DNA from: a virus
Taxonomy: Duplodnaviria; Heunggongvirae; Uroviricota; Caudoviricetes
IMG/VR virus record: IMGVR_UViG_2667527789_000013
Span: 1-31,026 of that record
DNA length: 31,026 nucleotides
Strand: one strand, 5' to 3'
Part shown: positions 5,363 through 28,875 of the stretch, one piece after another
Layout of the letters: every line of letters starts with the position of its first letter
Position numbering within the stretch: the stretch's first letter is position 1
Position numbers and translations under genes: made by a program
The notes under the pieces: model-generated
What the model was told of the DNA's origin: nothing
The model's database searches: none
What the model saw: the letters and a program-made list of their open reading frames with translations, nothing else

Positions 5363-5379
5363 ATTACCTTTTGGGTAAT
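5363..5379. promoter_or_regulatory. Operator-like palindrome ATTACC-TTTTG-GGTAAT (site A)
   Basis: Perfect 6-bp inverted half-sites separated by 5 nt; one of six similar intergenic sites; in the divergent region between tailspike and the 5455 gene. Confidence 0.4.
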
Positions 5380-6481: not shown

Positions 6482-6498
6482 ATTACCTTAAAGGTAAT
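6482..6498. promoter_or_regulatory. Operator-like palindrome ATTACC-TTAAA-GGTAAT (site B) overlapping putative promoter of the 5734..6462 gene
   Basis: Perfect half-sites; read on the minus strand this gives TTGATC-N16/17-TACCTT, with the -10-like element inside the palindrome, about 20-36 nt upstream of the ATG at 6462. Confidence 0.4.
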
Positions 6499-6574: not shown

Positions 6575-6591
6575 ATTACCTTTGCGGTAAA
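6575..6591. promoter_or_regulatory. Operator-like palindrome ATTACC-TTTGC-GGTAAA (site C)
   Basis: Same half-site motif with one mismatch in the right half; lies just upstream of the structured RNA element and about 270 nt upstream of the Bro-N gene. Confidence 0.35.
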
Positions 6592-7613: not shown

Positions 7614-7642
7614 TTGCAGACTGTGGGTGAATAGCGTACTAT
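7614..7642 (+). promoter_or_regulatory. Sigma70-like promoter TTGCAG-N17-TACTAT for the two-gene cassette
   Basis: -35 TTGCAG (7614-7619), 17-nt spacer, -10 TACTAT (7637-7642); about 75 nt upstream of the small ORF SD. Confidence 0.4.
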
Positions 7643-7657
7643 TACCTCAAGGGTAAA
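7641..7657. promoter_or_regulatory. Operator-like palindrome ATTACC-TCAAG-GGTAAA (site F) abutting the -10 element
   Basis: Half-site motif begins within the last 2 nt of TACTAT; followed by a second inverted repeat ACGGATT ... AATCCGT (7657-7685) in the leader. Confidence 0.4.
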
Positions 7658-8470: not shown

Positions 8471-8500
8471 TTCGTTAAAAACAAGGCCGCGAAAGCGGCC
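8471..8500 (-). terminator. Rho-independent terminator ending the ejection-protein operon (after the secreted-protein gene)
   Basis: Stem GGCCGC / GCGGCC with GAAA loop; on the minus strand followed by TTGTTTTTAA; 8 nt downstream of the minus-strand stop at 8508. Confidence 0.5.
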
Positions 8501-8507
8501 TGTTTGA

Positions 8508-9359
8508 TCACTGTGCAGTTTTCGCTGATCGATTTTCAGCTCTAAATTCAAGAACCGTTTCAATATTTCTTTCCTTCAGCATATCAATAACATTTTTATT
8601 CATTTGACTATCACTGGTTAATAACTGGTAAACGTTGCTTCTCTCTTTATCAGAGTTTTCTTTAACAGCTGCTTTGCATGCCAAATGCTTATTGAAATTT
8701 TCTACATCGCTAGTACAGGAATTTACGGCTGCTGATGAAATATCAGACGCTGAAGAAACACCATCATCCAAACGTTTTATAGCATTTTCTATACATGAGT
8801 TAAGGGAATAAACGACAACTGAGCGATACCCTTCAGACGCACACCATTCTAAATTTCTTGAAGGATCGAGTGGTTTTACTTCGCTGGATTGAATTAACTT
8901 GTCAAAAACTGACTTATATTCAATCTGTTTTTTATCTATAGCCCATACTTCAGTAGCTGATTTATAATTCCCCGTATGCCTATTAACATCAAATCCATGT
9001 TTTATAAGCAAATCTGCCCATGAAAGATTTATTGATTCATTGTTATGAGGCCATTTTCCTGTCAGAACCGCCCCCATAGACCCCATATGTCCGCCATATG
9101 ATGGTATAGCACCATGGCTCAGTAACTTCTCAGCAACCACAGGGCAATTAATTACATAAGAGGCGTAAAGCCCATTCCATAAAGCCCCTCTATAGTAATC
9201 GCCACGATTAGGTTCTTTTAAGTCGATAGCCTTTGATAATTGTTCACACGTTTTGCATGCATCAAAGTTATCCTTATTGCATTGCAATGAACTGGCAGCT
9301 GTAGGATTTACAGAGACTATTGAAAGCACTATGCCAAAAAACAAATTTATTTTTTTCAT
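8508..9359 (-). CDS. Secreted/periplasmic Cys-containing protein of unknown function (cargo; candidate lysogenic-conversion or exclusion factor)
   Basis: 283 aa; signal peptide MKKINLFFGIVLSIVSVNPTAAS; several Cys; visibly AT-rich relative to flanking structural genes; ATG 9359 lies 1 nt after the stop of the upstream ejection-protein gene. Confidence 0.6.
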   Translation of the reverse strand: MKKINLFFGIVLSIVSVNPTAASSLQCNKDNFDACKTCEQLSKAIDLKEPNRGDYYRGALWNGLYASYVINCPVVAEKLLSHGAIPSYGGHMGSMGAVLTGKWPHNNESINLSWADLLIKHGFDVNRHTGNYKSATEVWAIDKKQIEYKSVFDKLIQSSEVKPLDPSRNLEWCASEGYRSVVVYSLNSCIENAIKRLDDGVSSASDISSAAVNSCTSDVENFNKHLACKAAVKENSDKERSNVYQLLTSDSQMNKNVIDMLKERNIETVLEFRAENRSAKTAQ

Positions 9360-22805: not shown

Positions 22806-23102
22806 CTACCTCTGTTCACTGGCCTCTTTGGCCATCTTCAAATACTGTTCAGGGCAATGCGCCATAACGCGCTGAAACAGTTCCAGCGCCAGATTGCGTT
22901 GCCCCTCATTAAATGCCATTGCCATAGCGTCCATCGGTGAGATAGCGGAAAACACCCGGCCTTTCTCCAGCACCGACCAGACAACGCGACGCCCCTGTTC
23001 ACTGCTCATGACAAAGCGAATGTCATCAATTTCACGCTGTGCCATGTCACGTTGCTTACGGGCGTTTTCTTCTTTCAGTTGATCGTCTTCGTAATCTGTC
23101 AT
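22806..23102 (-). CDS. Hypothetical small protein (98 aa) downstream of portal
   Basis: ATGA-type overlap with the portal stop; charged helical protein of unknown function. Confidence 0.5.
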   Translation of the reverse strand: MTDYEDDQLKEENARKQRDMAQREIDDIRFVMSSEQGRRVVWSVLEKGRVFSAISPMDAMAMAFNEGQRNLALELFQRVMAHCPEQYLKMAKEASEQR

Positions 23103-24778
23103 TGTGATTTCCCACCCTGACCACTAACTGCATTCGCCATAGCTGACAAAACACTCGGATCCGAAGTTTTAGCTTCGCTTAGCGTCTTGGCACCCTGTGC
23201 CGCCGCCATCCCCATCGCCATCATTTGTTGCTGCTGTTGTTGCTGTGCCCGTTGCTGGCGAGCCTGCTCAACCTGTTCCTGCGGAACAATGACGGTTGGA
23301 GACACTCCGGACATATCAGCGAATGCATCGATCGCCTGATCAACGTTGAGTTTGTCGAGAGCTTCTGGTTTCGCTTGTGCAAGTTGACCAATGAAGTTGA
23401 CCGTGGATGCCAGACTGGACAGGCCGATAGACTTCTGCGCCTGAGCCATGACGGAAATGTATTCGACCTTCAGGGGCATACCTTCCATCGCGTCAGGCGG
23501 TGGCGGCAGCATGTTTTTACGCACCATCATCGAGAAAGCGCGGTCAATGAGAGGATTAAGACATTCGTCGTTCAGACGCTCAAGTACCGGCCCCAACATC
23601 AGAAGTTTTTCTTCTTTCATTTCGATCACCGCTTCAACAGGCATCGAGCGGGTATTGATGTTCTGCAACATCATGAACAGATCGACAAAGTAGGCGCTGT
23701 TAATGATTTGACGAGTGTCCTGAATGTCTGCCACCAAATCTGCTGTACTGGGGTTAACCAGATAAGCAGGCCTGAAGCCATCCTGACCAGTAATCTGATC
23801 GATATACGTGATGTCGCCAGGAAGAAGGGAGGCGCGCTGATTCTTGAGGGAAGTCGGAGCAACCATCGGCGGATTGGTGGCTTTATCAATCAACTGCGAC
23901 TTGCGCTTCTGGAGAAGCTGCAATGCCTTAACAGGTCCAAGCGCCAGCATACCCGGGCATGATGATCCATAAACATCTTCGCCGTTAACTTCCCAGCGCG
24001 GAGCCATAATTGGAAACTCATCAAATCCGGACTCACGCAACAACTTGTCGTTATCGCCACCAACCTCGTAATAAACCGATTTGAATGGCTTGTTCTTGCT
24101 ATCCAGCTTCGATGTATCGCGGTCAATGTTCGGGTAAACCGAATGCATCACTTCAATCCACTTCTCGTAGGTGCCGCTTTCCCACATGCTTTTTACGGAT
24201 TCGCTGACGTTATTTAGCCCGAACTCCTGAACAAGCTGACGAACAGTCATAGAGAACTTGCGAAAACAGGTGTCCACACTGCCACGAGGTGAGTTAGCCA
24301 GGTAGTAACTGCCTATCGGGAATGGCATTGTGCGAATGATGTCCTCGTCATCCTCCAGTACTGCCATTGCACCAGTGCTGTATGTGCCGAGGCTTCCGTA
24401 TAACTGCGGCAGCGACTGATAGAGATTCGACTTATTGAACATATCGTTCATGCGGTTCTGCACCGCCTCAAGCCACAACTTAACAGGACCATAATCCATC
24501 ATTTCAGGATCAGGCGTAGCCAGGCGAAACCACGGACGCGCGGGGCTTGTGATGCCAGACATCATGCCGCTGGCGAGAGTGCGCGCCGCCATAGTCCCGG
24601 TCGAATCAATAATGCGTGTATTGCGTCGATCGTTACTGTTGACCTCAGAAGTAAGAAAGCGGGAACCACGCGGGTTGATGTAATCACTCAACTCGCGCCA
24701 GTGCGGCTCGAACGACTGACGCTCGCTTTCAAGTTGTGCGAACTGTTTGTTCAATCGCTCTTTAGTTGTTTCCGCCAT
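23099..24778 (-). CDS. Portal (head-to-tail connector) protein
   Basis: 559 aa; position after terminase, size and Gln/Ala-rich C-terminal tail (QARQQRAQQQQQQQMMAMGMAAAQG) typical of T7-type portal proteins; GGAG SD. Confidence 0.75.
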   Translation of the reverse strand: MAETTKERLNKQFAQLESERQSFEPHWRELSDYINPRGSRFLTSEVNSNDRRNTRIIDSTGTMAARTLASGMMSGITSPARPWFRLATPDPEMMDYGPVKLWLEAVQNRMNDMFNKSNLYQSLPQLYGSLGTYSTGAMAVLEDDEDIIRTMPFPIGSYYLANSPRGSVDTCFRKFSMTVRQLVQEFGLNNVSESVKSMWESGTYEKWIEVMHSVYPNIDRDTSKLDSKNKPFKSVYYEVGGDNDKLLRESGFDEFPIMAPRWEVNGEDVYGSSCPGMLALGPVKALQLLQKRKSQLIDKATNPPMVAPTSLKNQRASLLPGDITYIDQITGQDGFRPAYLVNPSTADLVADIQDTRQIINSAYFVDLFMMLQNINTRSMPVEAVIEMKEEKLLMLGPVLERLNDECLNPLIDRAFSMMVRKNMLPPPPDAMEGMPLKVEYISVMAQAQKSIGLSSLASTVNFIGQLAQAKPEALDKLNVDQAIDAFADMSGVSPTVIVPQEQVEQARQQRAQQQQQQQMMAMGMAAAQGAKTLSEAKTSDPSVLSAMANAVSGQGGKSQ

Positions 24779-24792
24779 TTCAATGACTCCGG

Positions 24793-24999
24793 TTACTGAC
24801 CAAGCAGCGTTTTACCGCTGGTATTAGCGGTTGATGTGTCGCCCTGAGAACCGGTAAGCAGCGTAGAACTACGACCAGCAGCAGCGCGACGGCGACGTGT
24901 TTCTTCGTCGCGGGCATCAACAACGGCAGCATCCTGCTCCTGTGGTGCTGCCTGAACTTCTGGTGTTGCAGGCACTGATGGTGAGCTACCCATGCACAT
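24793..24999 (-). CDS. Small ORF (68 aa) immediately upstream of portal, uncertain
   Basis: ATG 24999 preceded by CGGAGTCATTGA, the same 12-nt translation-initiation context that precedes the portal ATG; low-complexity Ala/Arg/Thr-rich product. Confidence 0.3.
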   Translation of the reverse strand: MCMGSSPSVPATPEVQAAPQEQDAAVVDARDEETRRRRAAAGRSSTLLTGSQGDTSTANTSGKTLLGQ

Positions 25000-25067
25000 A
25001 TCAATGACTCCGTACGCAATTAAATTATTACCAATTTAACCACATATGATTTATTTATCGTAGATAG

Positions 25068-25096
25068 TTGACATTTAACGCACGAATTATTACCTT
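25068..25096 (+). promoter_or_regulatory. Sigma70-like promoter TTGACA-N17-TACCTT for the plus-strand tRNA/Gp49-like unit
   Basis: Perfect -35 TTGACA (25068-25073), 17-nt spacer, weak -10 TACCTT (25091-25096) lying inside operator site D. Confidence 0.35.
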
Positions 25097-25105
25097 TTAG
25101 GTAAG
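25089..25105. promoter_or_regulatory. Operator-like palindrome ATTACC-TTTTA-GGTAAG (site D)
   Basis: Same half-site motif as sites A-C, E, F; overlaps the -10-like element of the putative promoter. Confidence 0.4.
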
Positions 25106-25426
25106 CAAATGGTTCATTCCAGTTATTAACCTGACTGGCTTGTCGTTAAATTGAACAGGTGGAGTGAGCTTTTATTTTGAGCAGTACGGCGTATGGCACA
25201 TGCGCCGATAGCGGTCTGGATACGTTTAAGGGGCACCCTCCCTTGCTCGGGCAAACGAACCAGGTAGCCGGAATGTGCAAGTCGAGCGGTTTTATTCCGC
25301 GCACGGGGATTCACCATCCCGGCGATTCGGTGTGACGCCTCGGAAGAGACGAGGGTACAACGATGAGAGCATTTATGGAGCCGCGACAAAGTGTGGCGCC
25401 TTAACAGGCTAAGTGCTCTCAGCGTT

Positions 25427-25503
25427 GTGGCATTAGCTCAGCTGGACAGAGCAACCGCCTTCTAAGCGGTTGGTCGCAGGTTCGAATCCTGCATGCCACG
25501 CCA
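25427..25503 (+). tRNA. tRNA-Arg (anticodon TCT; reads AGA)
   Basis: 77 nt cloverleaf by hand: acceptor GTGGCAT/ATGCCAC, D-arm GCTC-AGCTGGACA-GAGC, anticodon stem ACCGC/GCGGT with loop CTTCTAA, variable TGGTC, T-arm GCAGG-TTCGAAT-CCTGC, discriminator G, encoded CCA. Differs from E. coli argU as I recall it in the acceptor and anticodon stems. Confidence 0.85.
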
Positions 25504-25546
25504 GAATCACGCCTAAGAACCGTGATGCCAGAAGTTCCAGTGGCTT

Positions 25547-25589
25547 GGCGGTGATGGTTTCCCTTGAAGGACTATCACCGCCCTTTTTA
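25547..25589 (+). terminator. Hairpin plus T-run downstream of the tRNA
   Basis: Stem GGCGGTGAT / ATCACCGCC (9 bp, 18-nt loop) followed by CTTTTTA. Confidence 0.4.
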
Positions 25590-25666
25590 CAGCAGGACGC
25601 CATTGCGATGACTTCATGCTGTAAACCCGTACAGCCACGGAAGGCATAACTCATTGCTTCCAGTTC

Positions 25667-25690
25667 GCCCGGTTCGCCGGGCATTTTTTT
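25667..25690 (+). terminator. Intrinsic terminator/attenuator immediately upstream of the Gp49-like SD
   Basis: Stem GCCCGG / CCGGGC with TTCG loop followed by seven T; the T-run ends 1 nt before the AAGGTGA SD of the ATG at 25702. Confidence 0.45.
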
Positions 25691-25701
25691 AAGGTGAGAT
25701 T

Positions 25702-26073
25702 ATGAACGACCAGCAAATCGAAAAAGAAATCGTTGAGAAAGGCAAAACGGCACCGCGCGTTACGCCAGACCATATCGAAGGCATTATTGCTCAGGAGGCA
25801 TATTTCACAGCAGAAGATGGTGCCTTTGGCAAAGCCATAAAAGCGAAACATACTGGCGGAGAGGTAAACTACCAGCCGCACGAATCACTTTCTCTGCTGA
25901 CGTTCTGCGTCCTGGTGCTGCGCAACGGCTTCACCGTCACCGGAGAGAGCGCCTGTGCAAGCCCGGAAAACTTTGATGCAGAAATTGGTCGGAAGATTGC
26001 CCGGCAGAATGCTGTAAACAAAATCTGGATGCTCGAAGGTTACTTGCTGAAGCAGAAGCTAAGCGAGCAATAA
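25702..26073 (+). CDS. Gp49-like phage protein (N4 gp49 / Sf6 gp66 family), cargo gene
   Basis: 123 aa; motifs TAPRVT, NGFTVTGESACASPENFDAEIGRKIARQNAVNKIWMLEGYLL match my recollection of this widespread prophage family; plus strand, opposite to the structural operon. Confidence 0.55.
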   Translation: MNDQQIEKEIVEKGKTAPRVTPDHIEGIIAQEAYFTAEDGAFGKAIKAKHTGGEVNYQPHESLSLLTFCVLVLRNGFTVTGESACASPENFDAEIGRKIARQNAVNKIWMLEGYLLKQKLSEQ

Positions 26074-26093
26074 CACCGTGACATGTCACAAAC

Positions 26094-26120
26094 AGCCAGC
26101 CGATGAGCTGGCTTTGTTTT
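26094..26120 (+). terminator. Rho-independent terminator after the Gp49-like gene
   Basis: Stem AGCCAGC / GCTGGCT with 6-nt loop followed by TTTGTTTT. Confidence 0.55.
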
Positions 26121-26163
26121 ATCCTCATCAGAGGATATCAACGACATTATCCCCACCAGCGGA

Positions 26164-27639
26164 TTAAGCATACGGGTCATAATCTGTGATGGCCTTGCCT
26201 TGCTGGTTCTGCTGCCCAGGAATTCGCAGACGCTTCGACACAGGGAACGCAAACGTCAGCAGTAGCGCATCGCCTTTACCCGGCGAACGCCCAAGACGCT
26301 CTTTGATATCTTCCTTCGGTTCGATAACGATTTTACCGTCCACACGAACTTTGTACTCTGCCGCCGACAGGTCGTCTGCTGTTTCCTGGTCATCCAGTAT
26401 GCCGCCCAGCCTCAGCCATGTCTTGCATGAATTGAACATCTCCCCACGCTTGTTGAGCATCTGCGGGTCAGTAGACGCGCCACCGAACGGAACAAGTTGC
26501 CATGTACGACCCCATCCGTCACCGATTGACTTCAGACCGGTTCCGTAACCGAAGTCGATGAACACCGCGTCAGCCTGGTACTGGTCTTCAAAGTCAGCGA
26601 TACGCTTCGCCATAATCAGATCGTCTGTGGTCTTGTTACCAGTCCATAGCACCTTACTGTGCAGCCCCTGCCGCAGGTATATCACCGCGTCATCAACGCC
26701 TGAGTATGCCGGGTCAACGCCGATTATCACCGGAGCATGTGCAACCTGCGCAGCGGTTACCACCCGTTTCATTGCCTCATCAGTAAGACCGGTAGGGATA
26801 AACTGCAATTCAGATGCATCAGGGAATATGCCGCGCACACGGATTTTAACGAAGTCGCTGTCTTCCCCGTAGTCATCAACCCATTTCTGCAACTGCTGTT
26901 TGTTAGTGCCTTCCACCGTCCGGCTGTCAATCTGCGCACACTTCCAGCGGTGTTTGTACTTGCGGAAACATTCACGGAAACGCCCGGTGTTACGCGTCGG
27001 GTTCCCGAACGCCACCCAGATGATTTCGGTGTCTTCGTCCGTCAGCGCACCCTCTGCTACCTCCCACACCAGATCGGCAATGTTCGACGCTTCATCGAAT
27101 ACCACGATGATGCGTTTGCGCTCGTTGTGTAGTCCGGCGAATGCCTCAGTGTTGTGCTCAGACCAGGGGATTGCGTCAGCTCGCCACCGCTTGTCGTGCC
27201 CAGGATCATTGCTGTACATCGCGGTAGCGGTACAGGTAAACCAGTCTTTCGTGATAGCAAGGTTCGACCACTTGATAATTTCCGGCCAGGTCTTCGTTCG
27301 TAGCTGGTTGTCGGTGTTGGCGGTCACCACGACCTTACAATCCTCGCAAGTGGACATGCCCCAGTTGATCAGCATTGAGATGAATGCGGATTTACCAATA
27401 CCGTGACCAGAAGCGCGTGCCAGCATAAGCGGCTGATAGCGCGTCTCTGGATTCTGCAGGTGATCACGTATCTCTCGGAACGCATCAGCCTGCCACTGAC
27501 GTGGACCGGTGGCATGTGCCAGTTCAGTCCCCTCTTCCCCCCACGGGAACGCATAGAGGGCATAACCAAGCGGATCGTGAGTGAACCCTGCAATATCCTC
27601 GATTAACTGCTCTTCAGGAGATAACGCTGTATCTGTCAC
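26164..27639 (-). CDS. Terminase large subunit
   Basis: 491 aa; Walker A-like ASGHGIGKS near the N-terminus, acidic nuclease-type C-terminal half; directly follows the small-subunit gene with ATGA overlap. Confidence 0.8.
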   Translation of the reverse strand: MTDTALSPEEQLIEDIAGFTHDPLGYALYAFPWGEEGTELAHATGPRQWQADAFREIRDHLQNPETRYQPLMLARASGHGIGKSAFISMLINWGMSTCEDCKVVVTANTDNQLRTKTWPEIIKWSNLAITKDWFTCTATAMYSNDPGHDKRWRADAIPWSEHNTEAFAGLHNERKRIIVVFDEASNIADLVWEVAEGALTDEDTEIIWVAFGNPTRNTGRFRECFRKYKHRWKCAQIDSRTVEGTNKQQLQKWVDDYGEDSDFVKIRVRGIFPDASELQFIPTGLTDEAMKRVVTAAQVAHAPVIIGVDPAYSGVDDAVIYLRQGLHSKVLWTGNKTTDDLIMAKRIADFEDQYQADAVFIDFGYGTGLKSIGDGWGRTWQLVPFGGASTDPQMLNKRGEMFNSCKTWLRLGGILDDQETADDLSAAEYKVRVDGKIVIEPKEDIKERLGRSPGKGDALLLTFAFPVSKRLRIPGQQNQQGKAITDYDPYA

Positions 27640-28232
27640 TGATTACCATCCTGACGTTCTTTGAGTCGCTTCCTGGCTGCTGCTATGCGATCAGCAATTG
27701 TCACATTCACATTAACATCCAGATGTTCTTTGAACGCGTTGACATCAACATGCTTACCAATCAGCTCAAGGTTCTTCACCTTGTCAGGCCATTTAATTTT
27801 TTTGAGGATTGTCTCTATCGAATCCTCGTTCATGTTCATGATGGTCGATGACAGATCAAAGCCACTAAGCGTAGTGCGCCAGATTTTCGGCCACTCACGG
27901 ATTGGTTTAAGGCTCCCATCGTCGTTGAGGATGTCGATCACGTCCATCTGATCGATCTCCACCAGGCGCATGAGAACGTAATCAACACTGACGCGCATTC
28001 GTTTGTTGCGCTCCTCCATCAACTCGGCAATCCGTTTTTGAATACGTTCATCGCGCATCATTACACTGGCTTTAACTGCCGCTGTATTTGGGGAGAATCC
28101 TGCGTTAATCGCTGCCTGAGTCTGGTTTTCAGGCGTTTGGATGTATGACTGGCAATAAGCCTCCTGCATTGCTGTTAGTGGCTTAAATTGCGTTGATTTG
28201 CGTTTATAGGTTTTAGGTTCAGCAGGCATCAT
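27636..28232 (-). CDS. Terminase small subunit
   Basis: About 198 aa from ATG 28232 (MMPAEPKTYKRK...) with GGTGG SD; track ORF 27636..28310 starts at TTG and runs through an upstream terminator hairpin; basic N-terminal region and position upstream of TerL. Confidence 0.55.
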   Translation of the reverse strand: MMPAEPKTYKRKSTQFKPLTAMQEAYCQSYIQTPENQTQAAINAGFSPNTAAVKASVMMRDERIQKRIAELMEERNKRMRVSVDYVLMRLVEIDQMDVIDILNDDGSLKPIREWPKIWRTTLSGFDLSSTIMNMNEDSIETILKKIKWPDKVKNLELIGKHVDVNAFKEHLDVNVNVTIADRIAAARKRLKERQDGNQ

Positions 28233-28249
28233 AACCACCGTGGTAATTG

Positions 28250-28265
28250 TTACCGTTTTGGTAAT
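28250..28265. promoter_or_regulatory. Operator-like palindrome (G)TTACC-GTTTT-GGTAAT (site E) with an extra GGTAAT half-site at 28242-28247
   Basis: On the minus strand reads TACTAT-TACC-AAAAC-GGTAAC-A-ATTACC just before the TerS SD; the same TACTATTACC-N5-GGTAA arrangement occurs at site F. Confidence 0.4.
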
Positions 28266-28274
28266 AGTACCATG

Positions 28275-28301
28275 CAAAATAAAGCCGCCATAGTTGGCGG
28301 C
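28275..28301 (-). terminator. Rho-independent terminator upstream of the terminase genes
   Basis: Stem GCCGCC / GGCGGC with 6-nt loop; on the minus strand followed by TTTATTTTG; lies between the 28307 gene stop and the TerS start. Confidence 0.5.
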
Positions 28302-28306
28302 AGTAT

Positions 28307-28519
28307 TCAAAGTCCATCAAATTCATCGTAAAAACTCTCGTCAAGATACCCTTCCCATTTACCGCGAATAAAAATTACATCCTCACCGCAAGGGTGCTGA
28401 CTGTCGATAACTATATCCCTCCTGTCGCAACCATACTTATTCATAAGAAATTTAACCTCTTTCTGAAAATTTGCTGAGTTATCTCTCATATCTTCAAGGT
28501 CGTAGCGTATTTTTGGCAT
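28307..28519 (-). CDS. Hypothetical small protein (70 aa)
   Basis: ATG 28519 (MPKIRYDLEDMRDNS...) with AAGGTG SD; track ORF 28307..28540 starts at GTG. Confidence 0.45.
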   Translation of the reverse strand: MPKIRYDLEDMRDNSANFQKEVKFLMNKYGCDRRDIVIDSQHPCGEDVIFIRGKWEGYLDESFYDEFDGL

Positions 28520-28536
28520 AACACCTTCGTGACATG

Positions 28537-28875
28537 TCACACTATTAATTTCGTTTCATGCCAGCCTTTAGTCACCCAGCATTGCGAGTCACCATTACAC
28601 GGGCATGAATTAACTGGAACTCTCTCGCCGCACTTACCGCAACGTTTTCTGCTGATCGATTTTATACGCCCGCGCACGCGTGCATCATCCTGGCGGATCA
28701 GTAACGCTATATACTCACCAAATTCGTAAGGCGCACGCCCGGGGCGACGCGTGGCACAGTTACGCTCCAGCATTTCAATTTCCTGAGCATCAAGCACAAT
28801 CTCCAGCTTACGCACACCAGATGCAGCTTGTCTGGCTCTCTGAGCGGCTTTGCGCTCTGCTGCTGATTTAGCCAT
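28537..28875 (-). CDS. Hypothetical protein with basic N-terminus and C-terminal Cys cluster (zinc-ribbon-like)
   Basis: ATG 28875 (MAKSAAERKAAQRARQ...); C-terminal RCGKCGERVPVNSCPCNGDSQCW; track ORF starts one codon upstream at TTG. Confidence 0.5.
   Translation of the reverse strand: MAKSAAERKAAQRARQAASGVRKLEIVLDAQEIEMLERNCATRRPGRAPYEFGEYIALLIRQDDARVRGRIKSISRKRCGKCGERVPVNSCPCNGDSQCWVTKGWHETKLIV

Follow-up and report, generated by a model that had tools for sequence, protein, structure and literature searches.

Among the closest described counterparts of the element treated here is matS of Escherichia coli, which organises the terminus (Ter) region of the chromosome and is read by MatP, reportedly as a ribbon-helix-helix dimer. 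The matS consensus has 13 bp, GTGAC-RNY-GTCAC (GTGAC[AG]N[TC]GTCAC) (PMC3603311). The P22 Arc, Mnt and MetJ-type repressors are small dimers whose beta-alpha-alpha core is preceded by a basic N-terminal arm, and they bind short symmetric operators beside the regulator gene; in epsilon15 and SPC32H the prophage repressor (Rep) has palindromic operators in multiple copies dispersed over the genomes, one of them just upstream of the gene for the terminase small subunit (TerS). Here, a perfect 12-bp palindrome, GTGACATGTCAC, is described from a stretch of 31,026 nt (positions 1 to 31,026 of IMG/VR virus record IMGVR_UViG_2667527789_000013; hereafter the window), which is an epsilon15/phiV10-like (Uetakevirus) prophage of E. 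coli. The palindrome has the half-sites of matS, and it is multi-copy, palindromic and dispersed like the Rep operators, from which it differs in sequence and in positions, being a second, independent family of sites. It is proposed, with a probability of roughly 0.55, that palindromes of the form Y-GTGAC-NN-GTCAC-R are the multi-copy operator of a 112-amino-acid (aa) regulator-like protein of the epsilon15 gp49/N15 gp46 family, whose gene ends at one of them.

An exact-match search over the whole window found two copies of the 12-mer and no other (sites A and B, Table 1), at the coordinates given in a first-pass annotation of the same DNA, which had pointed to the pair as rare and as flanking the terminase genes. 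The rarity was borne out, with a mean of 0.01 copies in dinucleotide-preserving shuffles and two or more copies in 0 of 100 shuffles; a chance origin of the pair was rejected on these numbers (2 exact copies against 0.01 expected) and on the copies found in relatives. The identity between the two copies spans 14 nt, CGTGACATGTCACA (26077-26090 and 28528-28541). The regulator gene ends inside site A, where positions 2-4, read on the minus strand, form its TGA stop codon. From the site it is 219 nt to the TerS start as annotated (28310), or about 295 nt to the ATG equivalent to the TerS start of epsilon15. Site B lies 4 nt past the TAA of a plus-strand accessory gene and 4 nt ahead of a terminator hairpin; the first-pass placement of the copies, one between a Gp49-like stop and its terminator and the other at a gene junction upstream of TerS, was correct. 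A mismatch search also found a copy with one mismatch, GTGCCATGTCAC (23039-23050), within the gp5-like gene, which is present in phiV10 and in the identical prophage of E. coli STEC1585 and not in epsilon15.

The region is 100% identical to the prophage adjoining guaA in strain STEC1585, and the window has 78-96% identity with Uetakeviruses such as phiV10 and epsilon15. Three exact copies are present in epsilon15 and in SPN1S, and also in Tyrion when the circular junction is counted, while phiV10 and PAT1 have two exact copies and a 1-mismatch copy at the third position. In epsilon15 the copies stand at the gp49 stop, 22 nt ahead of a terminator; between the hairpin of the terminase large subunit (TerL) gene and the accessory gene gp50; and at the gp18 stop, which is the end of the structural operon, 2 nt ahead of a terminator. 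This third position (site C) lies about 17 kb away and is occupied in most complete relatives (epsilon15, SPN1S, PAT1, Tyrion, phiV10); at the corresponding position of the window, the terminator is kept and the palindrome is missing. Among 80 IMG/VR contigs with a nearly identical TerL, 139 exact copies were found at the two window positions, and the DNA beyond the palindrome is mosaic, its flanks being diverged or replaced. In one-genome-per-species data the 12-mer is exact at both site A and site B in Erwinia, Scandinavium, Klebsiella, Pseudocitrobacter, Buttiauxella and Rahnella, and also in Citrobacter, Superficieibacter, Pantoea, Pseudescherichia and Samsonia, and the few variants in this set have changes in the two central bases only. 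The search of related prophages that the first-pass annotation had recommended finds the 12-mer at both places across more than 12 bacterial genera, and its concern that the 12-mer could be a frequent host repeat is not borne out, as no copy was found in the 108.5 kb of E. coli chromosome scanned (two 50-kb slices of K-12 and 8.5 kb of host flank).

Where the lysis operon ends, at the stop of the gene for the Rz spanin, a degenerate fourth copy was seen as GTGACATGTCAT in SPN1S (26722) and as GTGACATGGCAT in epsilon15 (26618). The deposited phiV10 record is linearised inside site A, between ...GTGTGA and CATGTTAC..., and the joined site, GTGACATGTTAC, has one mismatch; the ends of this record therefore look like an annotation choice and not like physical ends. 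The starts of the deposited records vary between phages and look arbitrary.

The presence of the motif was then compared with that of the regulator gene in 30 loci picked by TerL similarity alone and scored for the gene and for GTGAC-N2-GTCAC. Both were present in 15 of the 30 and both absent from the other 15, with no locus having one alone. The TerL relatives at 47-51% identity without the regulator gene (three from Pseudomonas, one from Hyphomonas) have no copy of the motif, and in Tyrion another gene parts site B, which has remained beside the accessory gene, from TerL. In a second set, 46 IMG/VR loci found with the ZF40 homologue of the regulator (51-100% identity) were scanned with flanks of 10 kb; all 46 had at least one copy within 10 kb, which in about 33 of them stood 0-10 nt from the regulator stop, the position of site A also in most of the 15 genome loci. 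The myovirus ZF40, whose regulator is 67% identical, has three exact copies, TGTGACATGTCACA, one of them 2 nt past the gp22 stop and two flanking cI-cro-cII, a pair 2.0-3.2 kb apart that is also found in six ZF40-like contigs. A P2-like Yersinia phage has two copies, 33 bp apart; N15 (regulator 35% identical) has GTGACTGGTCAC three times, once at the stop codon of gene 46; and Vibrio phage K233 (regulator 31% identical) has GTGACGCGTCAC once and GTGACACGTCAC twice, that is, GTGAC(GC/AC)GTCAC. The regulator and the motif also occur together in a Pseudomonas lundensis contig and in an Advenella metagenome-assembled genome, and lambda, P22 and 10 regulator-less prophage loci have neither. Because ZF40, the P2-like Yersinia phage, N15 and K233 keep both, the linkage of gene and motif outlasts the exchange of virion modules and deep divergence and, judged from these comparisons, the co-varying partner of the motif is the regulator gene and not the terminase.

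The general form of the motif is GTGAC-NN-GTCAC, preferentially flanked by Y and R. Its centre is AT in 231 of 262 distinct contexts and another dinucleotide in the remaining 31, its half-sites are invariant, and its spacer in the Uetakeviruses is 2 nt only. Invariant half-sites with a free centre are the pattern expected of a dimer that reads two half-sites. In some IMG/VR contigs, full sites are clustered with extra GTGAC/GTCAC half-sites within 40-70 nt (contig L163, 3600-3655; contig L179, 7540-7610), resembling compound operators. For Uetakevirus-type loci, 38 of 74 distinct contexts have a terminator-like hairpin with a T-run at most 30 nt from the site, versus 22 of 3000 random positions, and the usual gap between site and terminator is about 22 nt at site A, 4 nt at site B and 0-1 nt at site C.

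The regulator has a basic N-terminus, an invariant core and a Cys-rich C-terminus, with Cys 79, 82, 91 and 93 invariant in the alignment. Its predicted secondary structure consists of helices at residues 5-18, 30-40 and 52-66 and a short strand near residue 25, a pattern compatible with a ribbon-helix-helix fold. The family includes 726 database relatives (clusters), all of them unnamed, and extends over Uetakeviruses, ZF40-like, N15-like and P2-like phages and phages of Vibrio and Aeromonas. Its likeness to the Arc, Mnt and MetJ-type repressors is in the small size, the putative dimer and strand-helix-helix core, the basic N-terminal arm and the short symmetric site beside the gene; in contrast, the operators of those repressors overlap promoters upstream, whereas the best-conserved of the present sites overlaps the stop codon of the regulator gene itself and the others stand at the 3' ends of operons, and the phage regulator has an extra Cys-rich domain, its fold assignment being tentative. 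A literature search on the motif and on gp49/gp46 returned nothing relevant, and the epsilon15 genome paper (Kropinski 2007) may contain an earlier mention.

From the conservation, copy number, positions and gene-site co-occurrence observed above, the binding, fold, oligomeric state and regulatory outcome may be inferred as follows. In the regulator, a strand-helix-helix core would follow a basic N-terminal arm and precede a Cys-rich tail that probably binds zinc. The protein would bind as a symmetric dimer, with one GTGAC half-site for each subunit and the two central bases unread. In epsilon15-type phages, the proposed operators are found where transcription units end, with an intrinsic terminator directly following: site A coincides with the stop codon of the regulator gene, ahead of the terminator that would part the early genes from the repressor-controlled terminase operon, site B stands past an accessory gene converging on TerL, and site C at the end of the structural operon. 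Their place beside terminators leads to the proposal that the bound protein acts at the boundaries of transcription units, as a roadblock or repressor reinforcing operon ends, which may limit read-through from the early operon into the terminase operon. Because one site is at the regulator's own stop codon, the protein may control its own message as well, and it could possibly bridge sites that lie 2-3 kb from each other. Boundary control of transcription is taken as the most likely effect, with low confidence.

Several observations weigh against this proposal or limit it. The distance from site A to the TerS promoter is variable among phages (about 70-300 nt), which argues against a fixed-position activator, and the positions of the sites differ by phage type, with some copies in ZF40 and in the Stenotrophomonas phage BUCT709 inside coding regions, so that a single regulatory outcome is not evident. 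The window has lost site C, where a different upstream gene (283 aa, 8508-9359) has replaced the palindrome-bearing segment; thus, not every site is essential. The division of the TerL-selected loci into 15 and 15 is phylogenetically structured, the regulator-less loci being the more distant relatives, and among the matches listed the regulator gene was found in 20 of the 80 IMG/VR stretches with the 14-mer, these stretches being partial. Two phages have the motif and no detectable regulator homologue: Klebsiella ST16-OXA48phi5.3, with one exact copy at the cro stop, and BUCT709, with two exact copies inside genes. Carry-over of these copies by mosaic recombination is plausible, because one of the contexts is also found in contigs that carry the regulator. 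DNA 90% identical to that of BUCT709 is found in enterobacterial-type prophage contigs, and the host assignment of this phage may merit a check. As for the protein, sequence and profile searches against Pfam, NCBIfam and PDB returned no match, and the AlphaFold model has a mean predicted local distance difference test (pLDDT) score of 55, so the ribbon-helix-helix assignment follows the secondary-structure pattern only.

The half-sites shared with matS raise the possibility that a host protein, MatP being the obvious candidate, binds the motif, and that the phage uses or mimics matS, for example, influencing MatP/MukBEF on phage or prophage DNA. A laboratory matS, GTGACAGTGTCAC, is the phage motif plus one central base (PMC7394560), and both kinds of site have identical GTGAC/GTCAC half-sites, inverted around a degenerate centre, in a few dispersed copies per replicon. 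The phage protein has a strand-helix-helix pattern compatible with that of MatP (entries 4D8J and 3VEA), the two phages without a detectable regulator would fit binding by a host protein, and the host range of the regulator (Enterobacterales, Vibrio, Aeromonas) resembles that of MatP. Run on the K-12 Ter slice, the same scan that detected the phage sites recovered three canonical 13-bp matS and no site of 12 bp. However, the spacer has 2 nt instead of 3 in the window and in every Uetakevirus site, a change of 1 bp that turns one half-site about 36 degrees relative to the other; 500 prophages of Escherichia and Salmonella show avoidance of canonical matS (PMC3603311); and the motif, which has no copy in lambda or P22, is matched perfectly by a phage gene across the TerL-selected loci. 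No homology between the regulator and MatP was detected (hhalign probability 0.14), and the four-helix bundle and coiled coil of MatP are lacking in the phage protein, which has its Cys-rich tail instead. The gene and the motif are found together in Pseudomonas lundensis and Advenella, hosts that are not known to have MatP. The confinement of matS to the Ter macrodomain is not seen either, as the phage sites lie beside terminators in prophages outside Ter, the identical STEC1585 prophage adjoining guaA, which presumably lies outside it. Membership in matS was rejected because of the shorter spacer, the avoidance of matS by prophages, the lack of resemblance between the regulator and MatP and the gene-motif pair in P. 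lundensis and Advenella, and binding by a host protein is considered unlikely, whereas a functional resemblance to MatP, or an interplay with it, may be kept as an open lead. Single canonical 13-bp matS-type sequences were seen as GTGACACCGTCAC in K233 (19491) and as GTGACATCGTCAC in a Pseudomonas prophage (locus L097, 16087).

A more speculative form of the comparison, by analogy, makes the gp49/gp46 family a phage counterpart of MatP, a ribbon-helix-helix protein on matS-type half-sites at a spacing that the host protein skips. For temperate phages whose hosts have MatP, such private 'mat-like' sites could organise, bridge or insulate phage DNA, or interfere with MatP/MukBEF, leaving the host Ter undisturbed. 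This idea is regarded as very unlikely.

The association with intrinsic terminators, stop codons and downstream Shine-Dalgarno/ATG elements is strong enough for the palindrome to be considered as an RNA element, that is, a small hairpin at the 3' end, before the terminator, affecting termination, 3' stability or translation of the next cistron. In the context of site B the minimum free energy fold includes a 4-bp hairpin beside the terminator, and the natural variants GTGACATGTTAC and GTGACATGTCAT would retain a G-U pair. However, the isolated 12-mer has a folding energy (-1.2 kcal/mol) that does not surpass that of shuffled sequence, and its hairpin is unformed in 2 of 3 native contexts; across the 262 contexts the 'stem' never co-varies while the 'loop' at the centre varies, the opposite of a structural RNA and a pattern that fits a dimeric DNA-binding protein; the asymmetric variant of N15 is found in both orientations relative to local transcription; and several sites are inside genes, on either strand. 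The RNA element is thus judged quite unlikely. The palindrome as an intrinsic terminator in itself was rejected, being too weak a fold and adjoining true terminators instead, and so was a duplicated terminator cassette, as the three terminators differ in sequence and have only the 12-mer in common.

It is similarly improbable that the motif is a joint at mosaic boundaries, or a nuclease or recombinase target, serving the exchange of accessory cassettes with no regulatory role. Both window copies stand exactly at mosaic junctions. At site B, at least seven unrelated accessory genes abut the palindrome among the 80 IMG/VR loci, each with its stop codon 4 nt away, and this fixed joint points to cassette exchange; the joint (window 26066-26090 and equivalents) reads TAA/TAG/TGA + NNCC + GTGAC... 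in all of the accessory genes. Three different fillings are found 3' of site A (a 70-aa gene, an 8-codon remnant of it, or nothing), and the junction at the lost site C of the window falls between palindrome and terminator. Against such a role, homologous exchange needs more than 12 bases, and the motif has no recombinase or nuclease that varies along with it; the copies in conserved coding regions of ZF40 and BUCT709 and the tandem copies of the Yersinia phage do not resemble joints; and junctions at gene ends would be expected anyway for any intergenic element.

Other regulatory sites were also considered as the identity of the palindrome. A sigma-70 promoter over it, with GTGACA as an approximate -35 element, was rejected, as a scan gave no promoter at either copy, inspection by eye showed no well-spaced -10 element and the TerS promoter lies at variable distances. 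The sites of CRP, FNR, LacI-type proteins, SlmA (GTGAGTACTCAC) and Ogr-type activators (TGT-N12-ACA) were set aside, as we take them to differ in spacing or in central bases. An operator of the prophage repressor was rejected, since the Rep operator, ATTACC-N5-GGTAAT, is a different sequence. The window has 8 matches to sites of this latter type versus 0.97 expected; Rep-operator-like sites were noted at 5363-5379, 6482-6498, 6575-6591, 7641-7657, 25089-25105, 28231-28247 and 28249-28265, ahead of units that include the TerS and portal operons. Direct control of several operons by the repressor, as annotated for epsilon15, is suggested by these positions.

That the motif is a packaging signal (a pac or cos accessory site) recognised by TerS is extremely unlikely: two copies bracket TerS-TerL in all Uetakeviruses and one K233 copy lies 19 nt ahead of the TerS start, but the third copy is about 17 kb from the terminase genes, N15 has the motif with its lambda-like cos ends elsewhere, ZF40 and P2-like phages have it with unrelated terminases, TerL relatives without the regulator lack it, and in Tyrion site B is detached from TerL. 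Phage pac and cos sites share with the palindrome their closeness to the terminase genes, but they track the terminase type and usually form one functional site near or inside terS, whereas the palindrome is found in 2-3 dispersed copies per genome and appears to follow the regulator gene across unrelated packaging systems. The packaging reading is, on these comparisons, not supported; the first-pass suggestion of flanking sites for a packaging or regulatory protein stands in its regulatory and flanking part, both positions being conserved across genera, and fails in its packaging and TerS-binding part.

The features of the window around the palindromes are collected in Table 1. The 70-aa gene is absent in epsilon15, and in phiV10 (1-45) and many IMG/VR contigs it is reduced to an 8-codon remnant (MHDEFDGF*), which retains the ribosome-binding site, the ATG and the last codons. 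The terminator next to site B has no T-run when read in the TerL direction. A tRNA-Arg gene (anticodon TCT, 25427-25503) is part of the accessory region that separates terminase from portal genes; it is encoded opposite to the late genes and converges on TerL from the plus strand, as does the Phage_gp49_66 gene. In PAT1 (23824-26274) TerL is annotated with 816 aa versus the usual length of about 491 aa, which suggests an insertion (intein or homing element) or a fusion.

Table 1. Coordinates of the palindromes and of neighbouring features in the window.
Feature	Position	Strand	Remarks
Palindrome copy 2 (site A)	28529..28540	none	GTGACATGTCAC; exact match
Palindrome copy 1 (site B)	26078..26089	none	Exact match
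112-aa regulator-like protein gene	28537..28875	-	phrog_536; epsilon15 gp49 / phiV10 p55 / N15 gp46 family
70-aa gene, function not assigned (phrog_1541)	28307..28519	-	Inserted between site A and terminator
Intrinsic terminator, GCCGCC AACTAT GGCGGC + TTTATTTT	28274..28301	-	Closes early-right transcription unit; homologous to epsilon15 39646-39672
Two Rep-operator-like sites (ATTACC-N5-GGTAAT type)	28231..28265	none	Just upstream of TerS; distinct from palindrome
Terminase small subunit TerS (Terminase_2)	27636..28310	-	Start annotated at 28310
Terminase large subunit TerL	26164..27639	-	Convergent with accessory gene
Terminator hairpin (26094-26113) + T-run	26094..26121	+	Serves plus-strand accessory gene and parts it from TerL
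Accessory ('moron') gene, Phage_gp49_66 (Gp49/Sf6-gp66) family	25702..26073	+	Stop codon 4 nt from copy 1
Terminator closing structural operon ('site C' position)	8484..8501	-	Same as phiV10 terminator

If the proposed pairing of regulator and site is true, it would give a DNA target to a widespread family of 'hypothetical' phage proteins (726 unnamed clusters), and epsilon15-type phages would have a second family of regulatory sites beside the repressor operators, placed at operon ends and terminators and at the borders of exchangeable accessory genes. It would then be possible to test directly whether the terminase operon and lysogenic-conversion genes are transcriptionally insulated. For annotation, Y-GTGAC-NN-GTCAC-R would be a simple marker of the regulator-site system, and the identity of its half-sites with those of matS gives a specific reason to look for a link between phage regulation and the proteins that organise the host chromosome.

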